NCBI GenBank assembly: GCA_046563655.1
Contig: CM102288.1
Coordinates: 2,604,001-2,668,000, forward strand
Direction: 5' to 3'
DNA: 64,000 bases
DNA from: Yuukianura sp. NJ FZ-2021
Lineage: Eukaryota
In this document: one piece after another, positions 28,176 through 48,700 of the stretch
Position numbering within the stretch: position 1 is the first letter of the stretch
How the letters are laid out: every line of letters starts with the position of its first letter
Translations under genes and position numbers: made by a program
Notes under the pieces: generated by a model
Databases searched by the model: none
Told to the model about the DNA's origin: nothing
What the model saw: only the letters and a program-made list of their open reading frames with translations

Positions 28176-30498
28176 TTAAACGTTGACGCGAACAGTAGTT
28201 GGTGTAAGGACATGGGCATGAATCCAGTCCAAAGCGAATCGTACAATGCTAAACCTCAATCGCTTCAAAAATGTACGAATCAGAGTAAATTCCAACTTGA
28301 CGGCCTCTGATGACGTCTGACAAAGGAGCTTCGTTGTCAAAGTAAGAAGCCATTGCATGATCTGCGAATCAATTAAGTGATAACGTTAACAAAAATCTTA
28401 AGTTGTACTGTAATCCTTAACTTTAAAAGAAAACTTACTTCTGAATCCGGAATTCGATCCGACTCTGTAAAGAACCAGCGAGAAGGAGCCCAGAGGTAAA
28501 TGTGACAAATCGTTGCAGCGATTTCCGCTGATAGACGCTCTGCTGGTTTGACCTTCAGTAAAGAATGGACCAAGTCGTTAATCAGCGGCGGGACACTACT
28601 GATTACCGGTAGTTCCTCTTCCGTGTACGTTCTGGAATCCAGAGTTCTCTTCTCGCTGGACTGATTTCGTCTACGAACAAACGGGTTTTGTTCTCCGAAG
28701 ATTTCATATGCAATGGCTCCGACACTCCACACATCTGATTTTGCGTAAGAAATCTTCTTCCAGCTTCCTGGATTGGCTCCAGATACTTCTGGACTACAAA
28801 AAGATTTAAAACGTCATAAAGTTAAAACGTTAAGCCAACGAATGTGACAACTTACGCCATCAGAGCTGCATTTCCACCACGATCTGTCTCAATACTTGGA
28901 AATGGAAGGTAAAGACCGTGCGACTTGTCTGCAAGGCAGCAACCAAAATCCGTGATGACAAGGTGTGGATAACTTTCGTCATTGGATGTTGATAACAAAA
29001 GATTGTCAGCCTTGAGATCCCTGGAGTCAAACAAACGTTAAGAAAAAACATGAAAGTGATACGATGACGTTGGCATTCACGAAGTTACCTGTGTGCAATT
29101 TCATTTGCGTTCAAATGAGAAACTCCTTCGAGTAACTGCGTCAAAAGTAAAATCCTGTTTCTCAGTTTCAAATCCGTGTGGTGTAGCAGGTATTCATGAA
29201 GATTCGTGTCGTAACTGAAAGCAAATCATAATCGATTAACTTGAGTTTGAGTAGATGTTACAATTGATCAATGAATTCAGATTAACGTACCGTTTCATAA
29301 CAAGGAACAAACTCATGTTTCTGCCAAGTCCATCTTCATTCAGTCTCCGAGGAAGTGCGTCTGGGTACTTTTCAAGTGATTCTGATAACAACGGGACTTG
29401 ATCCGTAAAGACGTGGGAAATATCAATGATGTTGGGATGCGGGGGACAGCGATTCAGCCTCGAGAGTTCACTGTGTACAAAAAATGATACCAATTTAACA
29501 TGATGTTGAGAGTGTTACAAGCAGGAAGTGATAGAAAACTGGTAAAACCTTTTGGAAATATCTCCCAGTTGGTCAATATTCCTTGCAGGTACAATTTCTT
29601 TAGCCATAGCACGCAGGATCATGGCAGAATTAGATTCGCAGTAGAAGTTGAACATCATCTTCACACCAAGAGGATACGACTCGTTCACATCCGATTTTGT
29701 TCCAACAGGCAAGTCCTTCCAGCGCGCTGAATAGACTGCAGCAGATGATCCCTGGGCAATCAACGGACCAAATTCCAAATTGTCTACAGACACAGAGTTG
29801 AAGGACGATGAAGATGGCTCAGCTTCCTCGGGTGACAAATTGCGTTGTTTCGTTTCAAATGACTCCTGTAGCAAGAAATACAGAAAGAAATCACCTTTGG
29901 ATCTACATGAAGCATTCCTTGGTCAAACTTACCCTAATTTCCCAGCAGATTCCTTCAAATTCGTTCTCCTTCGTCAGGACTCCAGCTCCGGAAGCCAGTG
30001 ATACTCCCAGCAAAGCGAAGAATGGACGAGCGTTGTTGGCTTGCAGTAACTGTTGACTTGCACGTTCCTGAAGTCCAGCATTCATCGAATTGGTTACACG
30101 CCGCAGAACGTTATCCACAAATATTCTCCTGTCCCAAAAAAGGAAAGACAAGTTACCCAACCGTGATAAGTTTCATGTTTCAGACATCATGGATCACTTT
30201 AACATTAAAAATTGAAGACAAACATGTTAGCTCGTCTGTCAAGTCACCTGTATTGGTTTTGAATCCCTTGCCCAATCCATTCCAAAGTTCCAGGATTCGG
30301 ATTCTGTGTCCTCGGAAGCGGCGGCAACACTTGATGAAGTCCAGTTCCAGCAGCAGTTGAAGTAGTCGGCCCTCTGCCAGGATTTATTCCGACGATTGGG
30401 TCTAATTTCCCCAGAATTGGATTTTTGGTATAGAATCCCTCAAAGTGATAACGGAGAAGAGCACGACCATGTCCAATTATACGTTGGATGATGGACAT
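28176..30498 (-). CDS. PINK1: PTEN-induced kinase 1, mitochondrial Ser/Thr kinase
   Basis: Presequence [127 protein letters not shown]-terminal extension [11 protein letters not shown]. Confidence 0.96.
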
Positions 30499-36206: not shown

Positions 36207-38210
<2,004 letters not shown>

Positions 38211-38400: not shown

Positions 38401-40324
38401 ATGGAAGTAGAAGTCATGTATTTCTTAAATTTTGGAGCTCTTGTGCTAGTTTTTCAAATTCTAGAATTTTCAGTCTCCGCAAGTTCATATATACAAACCA
38501 TTAGCAAAAATGAAGCCTTCATGGTAAATATGGACGATGAGTGTCACAGCGGAGTTCTAGCTTTTCCGACTGCACAGAAGCTCGATTGTGTCTGCCTCAA
38601 TGGAATGTAATTTCAAACGTTTGGATTTAAAAACATCTCTTAAAAAACAGTTTTGCTTTGATTTGGCTTAAATTTTGATTTCAGCTACTCGTTTCTGCAC
38701 TATCACAAGAATTGTTCATACGATACGACATGGATAACTCGAGCAGGACAAGATCATTGCCTCGAAATGGGAAAACTACAAAAAGTAACAACTAAATACG
38801 ATTTCTATGCACGATGGTTTCATTTTTGATTGAATACTTGTTAATTCTCTTAGTTTAACCGCATTGAACTCCTAATTTCAAATGCTGGAAACGAATCACT
38901 GACAATCGTAGACGGCAAGTTTCACTTCGTCAAAGGCCGATATAACCGAACTTTTGAAAATCCAGAAGTCCGTAAGGGTGATACGCTCGTCGTCACTGGA
39001 ACATGGTCACTCGTTACTGAAGAACAATCTACACTCTGCGTAAATGCCCTGCCCGACCACTACTGTATCTATCGCTACATTCCAAAATTTGCAACACTTC
39101 GACCTGGATGTCACGGACAAGGCAAACGACAACTGACGCCGTGGAAGTGTCTTCTTGCAAACCGCGCCGACAGTAAGCCGAAAAATTCGAAACTTTAAAG
39201 TTTCAAAAAAAGAAATTCCTTTTCAAAAACAACATTTTATTAACTTTTTCAGGTATGGCCAAAGGCTGTCCAGGAATCAAACGTCATATGGTGGCTAAAC
39301 GCGAAATAACACCGGACGCTCCAAGTTTTATGCCAGCTCTGTACTCAATGGCTCCTCCATTCAACGATACTCCACCGACTGAGCGTGACGAAGACTACGG
39401 TTTGCAAGGTGCCAAGGGCTCAGAGCTAATCAAAAACGAAATCTGGAACTACTTGACCCAGGAAACTGCAAATATTTTGGCAGACAAGAAACTTGCGACC
39501 GAAACAGTCTATGTTACTCCGGCTTTTGATGTACTCCAACTTAGTAAAAAGATTATGGCCAAAAGTTGTCCCCAATTTTATGTCAACTCGAGCCACTGGG
39601 ACATGGCCGTCACCAGTTTCATTGCAATTCAACAAAAGGCGTTCAAATTCCGTGAAAGTCTGATTGACCTGGTGGAGTACAAAAGAATCAAGGACACTTT
39701 GCAGCGCTGTTTGGCCAATATCACTGAAATTCCGTTTATTCCGCCAAATGAAACTTGTATCGATGGTGAAACCGTTTTGGTAAGCTTTTCAGAACTGAAA
39801 TTTGAAAATTTCCAAATTCTAGACTTTTTTGAAAAATGATAGACACTGGAAGAGGGAATGTACTACGCACATGGTGAAGTTCAAACGATGAATATCATAA
39901 TTGATCAAATGTCGACTCAGAACGAACCGTTTATCGAAACTGTTTGGAAAATTTTCGTCCATGTACATTCCCTATGTTTCGAATATTTCAAAAGCAGTCG
40001 GATCAACGACCATCATCGGTTTACCGAACTCCTCATGCAGTTGTTCACCAATGACGTTTGGGATATATGGTAACTTTTGTTCAAAATTTTCAAATTTTTA
40101 GAAAAAAAACGCATTTAACTTCGAAACAAAATTTTGTACTGCTTAATAGGATGAAAGATGGTGACGGCAAGAACTACGAGTTGAAAAAAGACGTCTACGC
40201 AGGACTACTTGGTGACGCTGTTAACTTGATGTCTCGCGTCGACTACTGCGCATGGTTCCCACGGTTTGAAGCCAACTACCCATGGGATTTGATTCGACCC
40301 AAGCAGAAAGCATCGCAAACGTAA
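38401..40324 (+). CDS. Uncharacterised secreted Cys-rich protein A (paralogue of 45788-48843)
   Basis: Signal-peptide-like MYFLNFGALVLVFQILEFSVSA (ATG at 38401 or 38416). Six phase-compatible exons: ~38401-38606, 38684-38784, 38854-39172, 39253-39779, 39843-40069, 40150-40324. No recognisable domain. Confidence 0.75.
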
Positions 40325-40643
40325 CAAAAAATTTCAACTTTTTCCGTTTTGTGTCAATTTTTCAATTTGTATTCCCGACGAGCTGCAATTATCTTTTAGT
40401 ATTAACATTTGATCTCAGTTTTAAACAGTATTTTTCTAAACAGGCGCAGAAAACGTTCTATTTTTGGAAATGGCGAAGGAACTTGTGCTTCAGCAATTGG
40501 TGACTTCAAGTGCGATTGATTTACTTGTGATTAATAATTACTCTATAAAAATAATTAAATTAAACTTCACTCTAAATAAAACGAGGAGAAAGTTGCAAAC
40601 TTCTCCAAATTGGTTTGTGTTTTTGACGTACTTTAGTTATGCG

Positions 40644-42678
40644 TCACATGCGGTTAACCATTTCAAATGTGCTGTGTCCATTGGATGAGCCATTGGGCGC
40701 TGCGGCCTTGCCAGCCTGTTCAAGGGCAAGCGTCGACGCTGAAGTTTTGAGTTGTTCGACATATTCATAGCATGATACCCCCAATTCCCCCTGATCCAAG
40801 CCTCCTCGTTCGACGTCTATTTCAGCCCGAAGACTCAAGCCAGGAATTTTGTTCATGAGGAACAGAAGAACCAGAGTGACTACAAATGACCAAGCAAGGC
40901 CAGCAGCGCTGTCAGCGATTTGAATTGGAACTTGCATCCAGTGACTGTCGAGCCAACCTCCAGCGATTTCTTGGCCATCCAAAATAGCTATGCTTTTTTG
41001 AGCAAAGACGCCTGTCAAAATGTTTCCCACGATTCCCCCAACCTGAAATAAAATGATTTATAGTTTGTATCCAGTTGTTTTTGGGTTCCGAATTCCGATC
41101 CGATGCGGAATACAAGTTTTCAAGCGATTTTTGTTTAAATTTAACACTTAGCATAGTTTGGAGTAATGTTGTCACATTCTCTTATTACCCCATGGACAGC
41201 AAAAACGTCCAAAGCGTCGTCGAAATGCAGAAGCCCCTTTAGTTTCATTGCCAAGTTGCAACAGCAGGCCCCTACGACGCCGAAAACAACTGAAGATGCT
41301 GGTGACACGAATCCAGACGCAGGCGTAATAGTAACCAATCCTGAAACGGGAGGTCAAAGTTCAAAATTTAAAGCAATAACACACAGGAGTTACTGTGGTG
41401 TGGCTTACCTGCTACGACACCGCAACAAAACGCCAAAGGTGAAAACTTCTTCTCATGTCTGTAGTCCAGCAGAACCCAAACAATTCCACCGACGCAAGCA
41501 GCCAAGTTGGTTACTACACAAGCAAAAATGGCTCTCGGAGAAGCAGCTAGAGCCGAACCGCCGTTGAAACCGAACCAACCGAACCAAATCATCGTAGTTC
41601 CCAACACAACATTGGACATGTTGTGTGGTTTCGACTCGCCTTTGCCATTTTCATCGGTACTGTCCGCATCGTCGTCACGGTGGCCAAGAATGATAGCATA
41701 AGCTGAAATTCAAAAGATTCAATTTGGTTGGCACAAATTTTGTAGAAATTTTTCAAAATTTCAAAAATAGATTGGTTTAAATACCCAAAGCGGCAGCTCC
41801 GCTTGAGATGTGGACTGGAGTGCCTCCAGCATAGTCCAGTCCACCCATCCGATTGCTCCACCCACTATTTAAAACAACCAATCACAGAATTTGTTTCGTC
41901 AATGTTAATTTGCCAGTTGATTAGCTTGCTAACCTGGGATTCCATGTCCAACAAGCGATGAAATCGTACACAAGTGTCGTCCACAGAAAAATGAAAACGA
42001 TTGTCGGAAGAAATCGGCCACGTTCGGCAGCAGCTCCGATTGCCAGTGCTGGCGTAATTGCAGCAAACATTGCTTGGTAAATGCAAAACAAAATGTCGGG
42101 GATTTTGTCGGAACCGATTGCGGGGTCAATTGAAACTCCCGTAAGAAAAGCATGATCAAAATTTCCAATGATCAGGTTTGCCGAACGACTGAATGTCAAC
42201 GAGTAGCCAAAGAGGAACCACTTGAAATCCAAAAACATTTGAAAAGTATTTCAAAATTTCGAATTTTCAAAAAAACTGAAAAATTTTTCCAACATTTACC
42301 TGAATGAATACAATGGCAACTGACCAACAACTGAGCATGATGAGGGAGAGAGCGTGTTTAGTTTTGGCCATTCCACTGAAAATGAAAACAACAACAAAGT
42401 TAATTAGCCGTTGTCACTTTTGATCTGTTTCATGTCACGCATGACCTCCTGTGACCTTACCTGTAAAAATATCCAACTCCAGGAATCATTAGGAAGACAA
42501 ATGCTGTTGACACTAGAACCCAACCAACATGTCCAGCATCGTAGTTGAAAGGCGGGGCTGTTGGTGACACTACAGTCAAATTTTGTTGTTCAAAAGAGAT
42601 TTCCTTTGAACCAGGCGTTGTTGTCACTCTCAGGTCACTCACGTTGGTCGCTGCCAGTGCCAGGTCACTGATGTTCAT
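40644..42678 (-). CDS. amt: Ammonium transporter, MEP/AmtB (Amt2) type, 7 exons
   Basis: FLMIPGVGYFYSG; FCIYQAMFAAITPALAIGAAAERGR; FLWTTLVYDFIACWTW; GLDYAGGTPVHISSG (His1); WFGWFGFNGGSAL; GLVTITPASG; FDDALDVFAVHGVGG (His2); C-terminal GLDQGELGVSCYEYVE. Confidence 0.95.
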
Positions 42679-45787: not shown

Positions 45788-48700
45788 ATGGGGAGACTAA
45801 AATTTCTGGAAATTTCTTTGGTCACTTTTGTTATGGCTACTTCCGCCAAGACCGCGAATAGAGACAATATCTGGAGTTCATTCAATGGACCATCAATGTC
45901 TCCATTGACATCTGAATACGTAATCAAAGACCGGAAACAAACGAAAAACCACTCGTCAATTGAAGTATTTGACCGATCAGGAATGGAGTTTTGTGACGGG
46001 CCAACCAGTTTTACTGCCAGTAGAACTGAATGCAAGTATGGCTACCTCTTCGGACCAAGGATTCCGCAGTGTTTGTGCTTCAGGGGCTTGTAAGTTCCAA
46101 TTTTCAAAAATCTGATATAACAAAACTCCCGATTTTGAAAAATGAAGCTTAATGCAAGTACTGATATTAGAAAACGAATTTTGTTGCAGATACCGAATGA
46201 TTCTTGACGATTGTTTCGAAAGCGACGGTCTTGCTGAAAGTCAAATTTGTACAAAACCGTTTGACACGCAACGCGAATCCGGTGCAAAAATTTACACGGT
46301 TCAAATTACGCAAGAAATAAACTGGGACCATACGCACGTCGTTTGTGAAAAGGAAGAGCGCGCAGGCGTCAAAATTTGGTCAGCAACAGCACTCCACGGA
46401 AACGTCAAAACTGTCAGCGTAACGCTTCCGGCCGAAGAACCTGATTTTTATGTCATCAACGGCGTAGCATACATGGTTGACGTTGCAGCAAATCGACAAG
46501 CGATCTGCGTTGAACAGAACTACGTCAGCTCCTTTAAACAAGACAAGATTTGTCGATACTTTCGAAACGACAATGACGCATGGCGGACAGAGAAGGCCGT
46601 AGAAATTACAATTCGATATGACAAGTGCCCACCAAATTCAAAACAAATGATTCCATCCGAATGCTTTCCGTCACAACGGGAAGGATCATGTAAGTACAAC
46701 AGCGACCGTGCAAAACAAATTTTGAAACTTTTTAAACTAAAAGGAACAAAATTCGAGCAAAATTGGATACGCTTCCATCAACAAAAAATCCATCGACTCA
46801 AGAGATTTAAAAAAAATCGGTCGAAAACTTCATGTTCGATTATGCACTTTTTTAAAGCTTAAAAATACTTGAGGTTGTTCTGAATTTATTGGCGAAGAGA
46901 TTAGCTTTCTAACGCATTTCGTTCAAAAGATATGAGTTTTTAAAGTTTTTGAATTTTAAAATTTTTTGAGAAAGATTTATATGGGGAAGCTAAAGGTTCT
47001 GCTTTGGAAACTGTCCGGAGCTATGCGGGGATCGTACGGTCCAGAAAGGCTCCTCGCCTTTCTCAACTTTTTTTCCACTGGCGGCATTCCCATACAAAAG
47101 GCAGGTAGAGGACGATTTCCTATCTACCTCTTTGCTTCGTATAATACCCTATCTCAAACCTCGAAAAATTCCCAGTGCACTTTCTGAATCTTTTCCCTTG
47201 CAAAACACACACCAGCTGACGCAGCATTCTGTCAACTTGTCGCAAGTGCTTCAAACGCTGCAAACCAACGCAAACCAAACAGCATCGCAAGCAAATATTT
47301 ATTAGCGTCTTCTAAACGTTTTCTAAACGATTTTTTTATTCTGTTCTAGAAACTTTGTGCATGATTTTAGTTCTTTATCGGCTTACGCCGTAACAACTTT
47401 GTGTCGCAGCATAACTGATACGTCTATTTCTAAATTTTCAGCGGAATGCGAGCTGCCTTGTGGCAAACGAGACGTTTCGAAGCCTCCAGTACCGAATACC
47501 GCTGGAACGACGGCCTCTGACGCAGTTGGACTGACAAGCCGTGCAAAGTTAACGGATCCATCGAATGCGAATCTCATGGCACCGTTACCCTTTGACGACA
47601 ACTCCTTATCATCCGATGCTCCATCAGATATCCGCTTCGACAACTTGTTCCTGGATAGGAAAATGCTTCAGTATCTCGTCGTATCCAACTTGCGTGATAT
47701 TCCACCTCTTCCGCCGCTTCAACCTAACCGAACTTTTGAACTCTTTGATCGTCTTGCAACGATTACGAAAAGCTTTTGCCCTGAAGTCTACGTTCATCCT
47801 ACATTTATTGACTCTGTCCTGGAACTTTTCAAGCTCATTCACGTCGGCGGAAGTCGTGGAAATCTGACGTATCCTGAAACGATTAACGAAGCGGACTTCA
47901 ACTGGACACGAGACATTCTGGACAAGTGTATCGGTACGGCCATTGCCAAACCAATCACCCTAACCCCACAACCAATCGATGAGGGTCCTGATCCTCAGGA
48001 TCCTCCGGAAGGTGACGACCCCAAAAAGCCGAAGCCGAACGTCACTGAGCCCTGCGGAGACGACAATGGCAAGGTAACGTCAAGGTCATTTTGCTGACAC
48101 AAGCTTATTAAACGACATATTCATTGTATTATGACAATGTTTTGTTAATGTAGCTCTGGGGCTACTGTCCCGAGGGCAAGTGTGACATTCTGCATGCCAA
48201 GGAAGTGAAACCGCACAAATCCAAGACCGAAGGAATTCTCAAGGAAAAGCACTACGTTCCAGAATTGGCCTGGAACATACTGGACATTACGCAGGCAATT
48301 TGCTTCGTGGACTTCAATTCCTCGTACAGAATGTTCCACATTGTTCAGCAAGCGGTCGAGCATCTTTTTACTGACCAAATTCGAAATCTATGGTAAACAA
48401 AAGAACAAAAAATGTCAGAACTTCATAATTTTTAAAAACTTCTTTGTATTCAAGGAATTACCCACCTTATAACGACCCAGCGTCAAAGGTCAAGGCACAA
48501 CTTCTAGGCGTAGACGCAGATGAGCAAATGTACAATTTGGAAATATGTACTGCCAGTGTCTACGACCTTGTGAAAACCGGACACTTGAGGAAGTATGGAG
48601 ACAAAGCCACGACTCTGGTCAGGCTCAAACGACCAGATACAGAAATAACGTCTCTAAAACGAAAAAAGTAGGTTTTTTTTTTAAATACAATAACTATTCT

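Follow-up and report, generated by a model that had tools for sequence, protein, structure and literature searches.

A putatively fungal-derived Mep2-type ammonium transporter gene resident in a springtail genome

We analyzed a 64,000-nucleotide stretch of contig CM102288.1 (assembly GCA_046563655.1, positions 2,604,001 to 2,668,000 of the forward strand) from Yuukianura sp. NJ FZ-2021. This whole stretch is referred to as the window, and all positions given below are counted from its first letter. On its minus strand, at 40644..42678, lies an ammonium transporter gene whose product is very probably, as judged from its sequence, a fungal-derived, host-integrated and probably functional Mep2-type transporter of a springtail genome. 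The original prediction had placed a fungal MEP-type transporter with introns in one animal genome. The transporter is real, but the gene is common to springtails of two orders and is not unique to this genome: Allacma belongs to the Symphypleona, while Orchesella and Folsomia belong to the Entomobryomorpha. Because the gene is shared by two orders, the transfer appears to be old and lineage-wide. That it is a domesticated fungus-to-animal transfer is supported by an arthropod clade lying inside the fungi, and by its introns, codon use and neighbours.

The interval 40644-42678 is the exact stop-to-start span of the gene, and the six GT-AG introns that had been proposed are borne out by the spliced reading. 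The seven joined exons give a 1506-nt frame of 501 amino acids with no internal stops, as verified by a script that checked open frames and splice signals. The parts of the gene are as follows; P0001 is the homologue from Orchesella dallaii and 5AEZ is the solved structure of Candida albicans Mep2 (CaMep2). TM and ICL denote transmembrane helix and intracellular loop, respectively.

40644..42678, minus strand: ammonium transporter coding region, Mep2 type; ATG at 42678-42676, TGA at 40646-40644; 7 exons, 501 amino acids
42461..42678, minus strand: exon 1, with the N-terminal tail carrying sequons N2, N12 and N33, TM1, and GVGYFYSG at residues 67-74 (splice model, P0001-5AEZ alignment)
42300..42375, minus strand: exon 2, starting in phase 2, with K-T-K at the ICL1 RxK site (splice model, multiple alignment)
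41934..42220, minus strand: exon 3, with YQAMF at the first Phe-gate position and ACWTW with the binding-site Trp, the most conserved exon at 76-77% identity to Orchesella and Mortierellaceae proteins (PF00909, homology search)
41785..41864, minus strand: exon 4, with LDYAGGTPVH and the first pore His at residue 212, codon 41812-41810 (splice model)
41409..41702, minus strand: exon 5, with ICL3 and its acidic insertion DDDADSTDENGKGESK, and WFGWFGFNGGS in the second Phe-gate region (splice model, PF00909, alignment)
41189..41340, minus strand: exon 6, with DVFAVHG and the second pore His at residue 368, codon 41194-41192 (splice model)
40644..41042, minus strand: exon 7, with the last TM helices and the cytoplasmic C-terminal region, Arg441, ERGGLD (ExxGxD) at residues 447-452 (40811-40794), Tyr461 and the end ...NRM plus stop (alignment)
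42376-42460 (85 nt), 42221-42299 (79), 41865-41933 (69), 41703-41784 (82) and 41341-41408 (68), minus strand: introns 1-5, GT..AG
41043..41188 (146 nt), minus strand: intron 6, GT..AG

The Pfam test of exon translations covered four of the seven exons. Exons 3, 5 and 7 each match the ammonium transporter family PF00909 separately (E-values of 3.9e-19, 1.8e-25 and 1.6e-13), at profile positions 48-136, 167-260 and 313-396 of 399, i.e. in profile order, and well past what chance could produce. The N-terminal exon has no Pfam match. The homologues P0001, P0028 (Bradysia coprophila) and P0063 (Folsomia) match positions 2-397 of the same profile. Local alignment of the spliced protein with four homologues opens three to five gaps each, none of which is at any of the six junctions, and the splice model is thus supported by homology. 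All of the strings that had been quoted as fungal-like, namely: MIPGVGYFYSG; YQAMFAAITPALAIGAAAERGR; WTTLVYDFIACWTWNP; DYAGGTPVHISSG; and the tail PGLSLR...GLDQGELG...YEYVE, are found in the spliced product. No second copy of the transporter was found within the 64-kb window using tblastn.

Among solved structures, P0001 scores highest with C. albicans Mep2 (403 bits), followed by S. cerevisiae Mep2 (378), A. fulgidus Amt-1 (274), E. coli AmtB (about 250) and Rh50 (27); Mep2 of the same two fungi is also at the top when exon 3 is used as the query. The motifs YQAMF, ACWTW, LDYAGG and WFGWFGFNGGS presumably match the Phe gate, Trp148, Asp160 and Trp212/Phe215/Ser219 of E. coli AmtB, respectively. 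Individual residues were matched to CaMep2 through the P0001-5AEZ alignment and our own multiple alignment, which includes the window protein. Both pore histidines expected from the original prediction are present: His212 (GGTPVHISSG) and His368 (DVFAVHGVGG) correspond, via P0001, to His188 and His342 of CaMep2. According to excerpts of PMC7048316, a His at the first pore position is typical of Mep2 and a Glu of Mep1, and in oocytes Mep2 is electroneutral while Mep1 is electrogenic. Since the window protein has His and not Glu at this position (His212), we assign it to the Mep2 type and not to the Mep1/Mep3 type.

The predicted N-terminal tail with NxS/T sites is likewise confirmed (N2, N12 and N33), and is longer than that of the other springtail and Bradysia copies. 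Tyr72 in GVGYF-Y72-SG aligns, via P0001, with Tyr49 of CaMep2 (GVGLL-Y49-SG), which lies at the end of TM1 and bonds to His2 (excerpts of PMC4852598). The C-terminal gate residues are kept as L-R441-AEIDV-E447-RG-G450-L-D452 ... SC-Y461, equivalent to Arg415, Glu421, Gly424, Asp426 and Tyr435 of CaMep2. The roles that we attach to CaMep2 Tyr49, Arg415, ExxGxD, Tyr435, RxK and Ser453 are those given in the same excerpts of PMC4852598. Overall, the window protein keeps the residue at 91 of the 93 columns that are invariant across 47 fungal rows. A hydropathy scan for TM helices, which is a crude method, gave overlapping peaks and no clean count; the colinear alignment to Mep2 suggests a trimer of subunits with 11 TM helices each.

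In order to place the protein among its relatives, we consider two kinds of searches. When exon 3 was compared with longer proteins, 570 of 809 candidates matched at an E-value of 0.001. Among the best 120 of these 570, the top match is Orchesella dallaii (77%), many Mortierellaceae come next at 76%, and the animals named are four: Orchesella dallaii, Bradysia coprophila, Allacma fusca (partial) and Folsomia candida. For the spliced protein, the scores are 672.4 bits with Orchesella, 669.4 with Folsomia, 664.5 with Bradysia and 658.2 with Linnemannia. With Orchesella P0001 as the query, the values among the matches listed are 763 bits for Folsomia and 738 for Bradysia vs. 673 for the best fungus, with the second Folsomia paralogue at 585. 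The window protein is 68.4% identical to that of Linnemannia over 437 aligned residues, and 63-72% identical to the other arthropod copies, the nearest being the partial Allacma protein; between orthologues across the two springtail orders the identity is about 66-72%. Mean identity to Mortierellaceae is 65% for the window protein and 63-65% for the arthropod proteins. Mortierellaceae proteins are themselves 64% identical to those of Mucoromycotina, 57% to Dikarya, 44% to the chytrid or sanchytrid and 48% to the malawimonad.

The search against 50%-representative sequences found 21,125 relatives at an E-value of 0.001. Thirty of the 150 representatives listed are named, and these comprise chytrids, a sanchytrid, a blastoclad, Smittium, Dikarya paralogues, three non-fungal protists, a bacterium and a bdelloid rotifer. 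No AMT-clade animal protein occurs among the 120 + 120 matches listed or the 30 named representatives; the animals named (springtails, Bradysia and the rotifer) all have Mep-type proteins.

Some of these relatives merit separate mention. The two Folsomia proteins, P0063 and P0172, are 71.5% identical to each other and are encoded on separate contigs (7.05 Mb and 1.24 Mb), which points to a duplication after the transfer. The rotifer protein P0198 (Didymodactylos carnosus) is of the Mep type and 49% identical to P0001, and nests in Dikarya beside Meira and Rhodotorula, with a support of 93 in the Shimodaira-Hasegawa-like approximate likelihood ratio test (SH-aLRT). From its sequence, it looks like a separate fungus-to-animal transfer. 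Its 695-residue model also contains EFR3 domains, and it is therefore probably two genes fused by annotation. Two proteins carry plant labels: P0176 (Anthurium amnicola) groups with Gigasporaceae (0.937-0.997 in FastTree), and P0194 (Adiantum nelumboides) shares a 90% cluster with a protein of the basidiomycete yeast Meira miltonrushii. Both are probably fungal contaminants in plant data.

The position of the arthropod proteins within the fungi was examined in trees of increasing care. In a FastTree analysis of 266 rows, the six arthropod rows form one clade with a support of 1.0. Moving outward from this clade, the successive neighbours are Mortierellaceae, Entomophthora + Ramicandelaber, Mucoromycotina, Glomeromycotina, Dikarya, and the deeper fungi. 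In a first maximum likelihood (ML) set (IQ-TREE, LG+C20 with posterior mean site frequencies; 60 rows by 482 columns, including three long outgroup rows), the arthropods are again united (100/99). Within them, the window protein pairs with Allacma (99/86), and Orchesella, Bradysia and the two Folsomia rows form a second group (100/99), in which Bradysia joins Folsomia (91/59). The arthropods group with Mortierellaceae (97/88) inside an enclosing fungal clade of 54 rows (97/89), and lie outside the Mortierellaceae crown of 17 rows (100/100).

Because the three long outgroup rows left the root of the first set weak, a second data set was built. It has 51 rows, including eight outgroup rows (a malawimonad, Hexamita, Paratrimastix, a bacterium and four metagenome rows), eight deep fungal rows and Smittium, and omits redundant Mortierellaceae, Mucoromycotina and Glomeromycotina sequences. 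In a quick tree of this set, the arthropod clade (SH-aLRT 99) lies inside three nested fungal clades of 14, 24 and 34 rows (98, 98 and 99). Under the approximately unbiased (AU) test, a constraint that unites the 36 fungal rows to the exclusion of the arthropods and outgroups is rejected, with a log-likelihood difference (dlnL) of 48.7 and p 0.018. We thus read the transporter gene as probably coming from within Fungi, with its best-supported position beside Mortierellomycotina. The identities agree with this reading, in that the window protein is as close to Mortierellaceae (65%) as the latter are to Mucoromycotina (64%). The fungal Mep-type assignment made in the original prediction is supported by the ranking of solved Mep2 structures, by Mortierellaceae Mep proteins being the best non-animal matches, and by the nesting among fungal Mep proteins in the ML trees, which hold no animal AMT or plant rows.

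The arthropod proteins also share derived traits of their own. At the beginning of ICL3, 47 fungal rows have an invariant Gly, which is replaced in all six arthropod rows. The C-terminus is [RK][LM] in each of the five complete arthropod proteins (NRM, ERL, SRL, HKM and SRM); among 143 other homologues with 430 residues or more, just 2 share this end and 59 end in V. That this end acts as a PDZ-type or other sorting signal is speculation. In closed Mep2, the pore is blocked by ICL3. In the window protein this loop carries an acidic insertion, DDDADSTDENGKGESK, at residues 225-240 (window 41620-41680), which is specific to this protein, the other arthropod and fungal proteins being 6-8 residues shorter here.

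The gene is embedded in DNA with host-like properties. Its GC content at third codon positions is 0.462 vs. 0.385-0.493 in 11 sets of host open reading frames (ORFs), and its relative synonymous codon usage correlates with that of the pooled host ORFs at r 0.68, vs. 0.13-0.65 for host genes against the rest. The pooled introns have a GC content of 0.31 and the flanking non-coding DNA 0.31-0.33, and the window is free of N. Five DNA sequencing runs from two studies, and no RNA run among those listed, contain the stretch; contigs from four of the DNA runs were compared with it in 30 bins. In three runs from one sample, all 30 bins are covered and word depth over the gene is about that of the flanks. 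A run from the second study covers 29 of the 30 bins at low depth, the empty bin being 40604-41070, a gap that carries no weight by itself. Most of the read contigs are shorter than 1.3 kb, and the stretch is not covered from end to end by any of them. One of them, at 40169-40676, joins the 3' end of the neighbouring gene to the last exon of the transporter.

The neighbours of the transporter in the window are:

28221..30130, minus strand: PINK1 kinase gene, multi-exon (exon search and tblastn)
37622..37885, plus strand: homeodomain exon of a paired-like homeobox gene (PF00046, E-value 2e-23)
38854..40324, plus strand: flanking host gene without a Pfam family, tail to tail with the transporter across a spacer at 40325-40643 (319 bp)
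46146-48097, plus strand: the other flanking gene, with long open exons and no Pfam family

Of the animal neighbours that had been named, PINK1 is upheld by its match to Orchesella and the paired-like homeobox gene by its homeodomain, while a CG32809-like gene was not confirmed, the two directly flanking genes having no Pfam match. One PINK1 exon has Orchesella dallaii PINK1 as its best match (60%), with insects at 35-47%, among the matches listed. Using Orchesella PINK1, tblastn finds six pieces in collinear order; three consecutive pairs are separated by some 50-57 nt, which suggests short introns. A DnaJ gene and TPR and pentaxin-like ORFs are also found in the window using Pfam; in the Pfam test of the two flanking genes and other ORFs, 10 of 13 had no family. 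A Protein Atlas comparison of the neighbour at 39255-39839 gave a best score of 0.87, which is below the useful level. In Orchesella dallaii, the transporter homologue and PINK1 are each found on a contig of 2,597,894 bp. This is most likely the same contig, and hints at a conserved linkage. At 46675-47141, word depth is raised about 20-fold in all four runs (6358 vs. about 250 in one), with many loose ends; this segment is probably a high-copy repeat or transposon fragment in or beside the downstream neighbour gene.

Several observations weigh against a fungal-derived, functional Mep2-type gene of a springtail. The topology tests are less than uniform. In the first set, holding the 48 inner fungi together is not rejected (dlnL 3.35, p 0.426), nor is holding all 51 fungi together without the arthropods (dlnL 15.3, p 0.23). 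In the second set, holding together the 27 inner rows (Dikarya, Mucoromycota and two Zoopagomycota) is not rejected either (p 0.348), and the p of 0.018 obtained there is modest and comes from a re-sampled set on a quick tree. The trees were built without animal AMT-clade or plant sequences, and the animal distribution of Mep genes is seen only through the best 120 matches or 150 representatives per search, many of them unnamed. The springtail assignment itself is drawn from a single PINK1 exon (60% to Orchesella) and from the transporter's tree. At the residue level, the RxK motif of ICL1 is absent, the window protein having A-K-T-K (KxK) where the other arthropod copies have R-S-K (T-S-K in the Folsomia paralogue P0172) and R-x-K is seen in the fungal rows displayed; replacing Arg by Lys is, by sequence, conservative. 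Finally, the tail beyond Tyr461 contains Ser/Thr (KTSAST) but fails to align with the region of the Npr1 site (CaMep2 Ser453). As a consequence of the two AU results for the inner fungi (p 0.426 and 0.348), the donor lineage is not statistically fixed, and we regard a donor close to Mortierellomycotina as an evenly balanced proposition. The gut fungi of the Harpellales and Asellariales were considered as donors and find no support: the only sampled Harpellales protein, Smittium P0201, is 45% identical and sits on a long branch away from the arthropods; sampling of these groups is thin.

These observations leave room for other explanations, each of which we consider improbable to a different degree. 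Fungal DNA wrongly joined to animal sequence would fit with the fungal diet of springtails and with a protein 68% identical to its Mortierellaceae counterpart. Against this, identity to the closest fungal group sampled averages only 65% and reaches 68% at best, the arthropod clade is free of other members and has its own derived traits, and homologues lie on Mb-scale contigs in Orchesella, Folsomia and Bradysia. In addition, the host-like codon use and intron composition, the arthropod genes on both sides in a gap-free window, and the read contig bridging to the neighbour, with word depth over the gene resembling that of the flanks, make contamination very unlikely. The argument against it in the original prediction, from introns of host-like size and animal neighbours, is thus upheld, and contamination or misassembly is already close to refuted. 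A decaying or silent relic of a transferred gene might be suspected from the KxK motif, yet 501 open codons in seven exons with canonical splice sites, the 91 of 93 fungal-invariant positions kept, and the approximately 66-72% identity of orthologues across two springtail orders render it highly improbable.

Vertical inheritance would have a MEP-clade gene in the animal-fungal ancestor that was kept only in springtails (and Bradysia) and lost in other animals. The first AU set cannot reject the arthropods outside all fungi (p 0.23), and the branches of the deep fungi and outgroups are long, with a poor placement; the better-rooted set does reject it (p 0.018). Moreover, the arthropods are as near to Mortierellaceae (63-65%) as Mucoromycotina are (64%), with the chytrid, sanchytrid and malawimonad at 44-48%, and the animals among the named matches listed are limited to three springtails, Bradysia and the bdelloid rotifer, whose protein has its place elsewhere in the tree. 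According to excerpts of PMC4814505, fungi have MEP-clade genes only and animals generally have AMT and Rh, the MEP clade being that of bacteria, archaea, fungi and plants (AMT2). Many independent losses would also be required, and we judge this explanation to be very improbable. Independent transfers from related fungi into this springtail + Allacma, into Orchesella + Folsomia, and into Bradysia would be compatible with the Linnemannia score (658 bits) almost reaching that of the other arthropods (664-672) and with the depth of the two arthropod sub-clades. The arthropods form a single clade (100/99), which no fungal row interrupts in the sets of 266, 60 or 51 rows; this speaks against separate origins, as do the Gly loss shared by six of six proteins and the [RK][LM] end shared by five of five complete ones; this alternative is also unlikely, if slightly less so than vertical descent.

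If the gene is indeed of fungal origin, a fungus related to Mortierellomycotina, as indicated by the ML trees, would have passed it to an early springtail or hexapod ancestor. The gene would then have gained spliceosomal introns, host codon usage and the arthropod-specific C-terminus, and would have been inherited vertically in springtails since. By analogy with the solved Mep2 and AmtB structures, its product would be a trimer of 11-helix subunits, with the N-terminus and its three sequons outside. The outer Trp/Phe site would capture NH4+, which would be deprotonated, and NH3 would pass through the hydrophobic twin-His pore, which may be gated by the cytoplasmic C-terminal region (Arg, ExxGxD and Tyr). 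The H/H pore type leads us to predict electroneutral, Mep2-like transport. Since the Npr1 kinase is fungal, gating in the animal must be achieved by other means, or the protein must stay open, and the changed ICL3 and C-terminus are candidates for regulatory rewiring. Springtails excrete ammonium and are not known to have Malpighian tubules. The most likely use of the transporter would be ammonia movement across an epithelium, in excretion or nitrogen-waste handling in a soil hexapod, and whether it serves excretion as opposed to uptake or sensing we regard as finely balanced.

The copy of Bradysia coprophila (P0028) lies on a contig of 15.2 Mb and is nested in the springtail clade next to Folsomia (91/59), with which it shares a terminal xVEQSR[LM]. 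Holding the five springtail rows together without Bradysia is not rejected by the AU test in the first set (dlnL 30.5, p 0.081). This copy could have reached the fly by transfer from a springtail, descend from an old hexapod gene that was lost in other lineages, or reflect a problem in the assembly. The position beside Folsomia and the shared terminal motif are the basis for the idea of a transfer from an isotomid-like springtail to sciarid flies. In a broader and rather doubtful scenario, a Mep2-type gene would have been taken up by hexapods a single time, around the origin of springtails, from a soil fungus resembling Mortierella. It would then have gained the [RK][LM] end as a sorting or anchoring signal, become an electroneutral NH3 excretion pathway, and later passed, animal to animal, from an isotomid-like springtail to sciarid fungus gnats.

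Fungus-to-springtail transfers are known, and springtails carry an unusually large proportion of genes of fungal origin: excerpts of PMC4987106 give 30.4% of 253 transferred genes in O. cincta as being of fungal origin, and about 30% of transferred genes are common to F. candida and O. cincta in excerpts of PMC5490193 and PMC4987106. 'Ammoni' is absent from the main texts of the O. cincta and F. candida genome papers (PMC4987106, PMC5490193), and 'ammonium' is absent from the two supplements of the Folsomia genome paper that were examined. A full-text literature search on the horizontal transfer of ammonium transporter genes in Collembola, Folsomia, arthropods/fungi, springtails and Bradysia found no report of this gene; the supplements of a metazoan horizontal gene transfer compendium (PMC13342648), which could list the gene, were outside this search. 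The public database label of the springtail and Bradysia homologues is only 'ammonium transporter 1(-like)'.

A Mep2-type gene that has introns and is conserved in two springtail orders goes against the accepted rule that animals have AMT and Rh only. It would be one more fungus-to-springtail transfer, but of a gene family thought to be absent from animals, and would add a transporter of a central nitrogen metabolite to a list of transfers that consists mainly of secreted enzymes. The transfer would date back at least to the split between Symphypleona and Entomobryomorpha. The gene could also serve as a natural experiment on how a transporter regulated by a fungal kinase is rewired in an animal, and on the value of Mep2-type electroneutral transport for excretion in soil hexapods, while the copy in Bradysia leads to the question whether genes have moved from one soil arthropod to another.

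Compared with known systems, the window protein resembles the ammonium transceptor Mep2 of C. albicans (5AEZ) and S. cerevisiae (5AEX) in its H/H pore, the Tyr49 equivalent, ExxGxD, the Arg and Tyr of the C-terminal region, and the N-terminal sequons. It differs from fungal Mep2 in its animal host, in the lack of an alignment to the Npr1 site and autoinhibitory region, in the KxK of ICL1, in the acidic insertion and the loss of the invariant Gly in ICL3, and in the C-terminal [RK][LM] as found in arthropod copies. The Mep proteins of Mortierellaceae (e.g. Linnemannia elongata 'ammonium transporter 2', P0004/P0005) are the closest non-animal sequences among the matches listed, and are sister to the arthropods at 97/88, a position that the AU test does not secure; unlike them, the window gene is host-like in structure and codon use. 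The springtail and Bradysia entries (Orchesella P0001, Folsomia P0063 and P0172, Allacma P0054 and Bradysia P0028) belong to the same clade and share the Gly loss, and the four complete ones share [RK][LM]; from their sequences they are likely orthologues or paralogues. The animal AMT proteins (e.g. Anopheles AgAmt and Drosophila Amt) and Rh are of the same superfamily (PF00909 for AMT) and presumably carry out the same ammonia task, but are in a different clade, with Rh50 scoring 27 bits vs. 403 for Mep2 when P0001 is the query. Other transfers from fungi to springtails (O. cincta, F. candida and the Folsomia beta-lactam genes) have the same recipients and are the same kind of event, and, in excerpts of PMC4987106, PMC5490193 and PMC5200902, those reported are centred on carbohydrate-active enzymes and secondary metabolism, whereas the gene described here encodes a membrane transporter.

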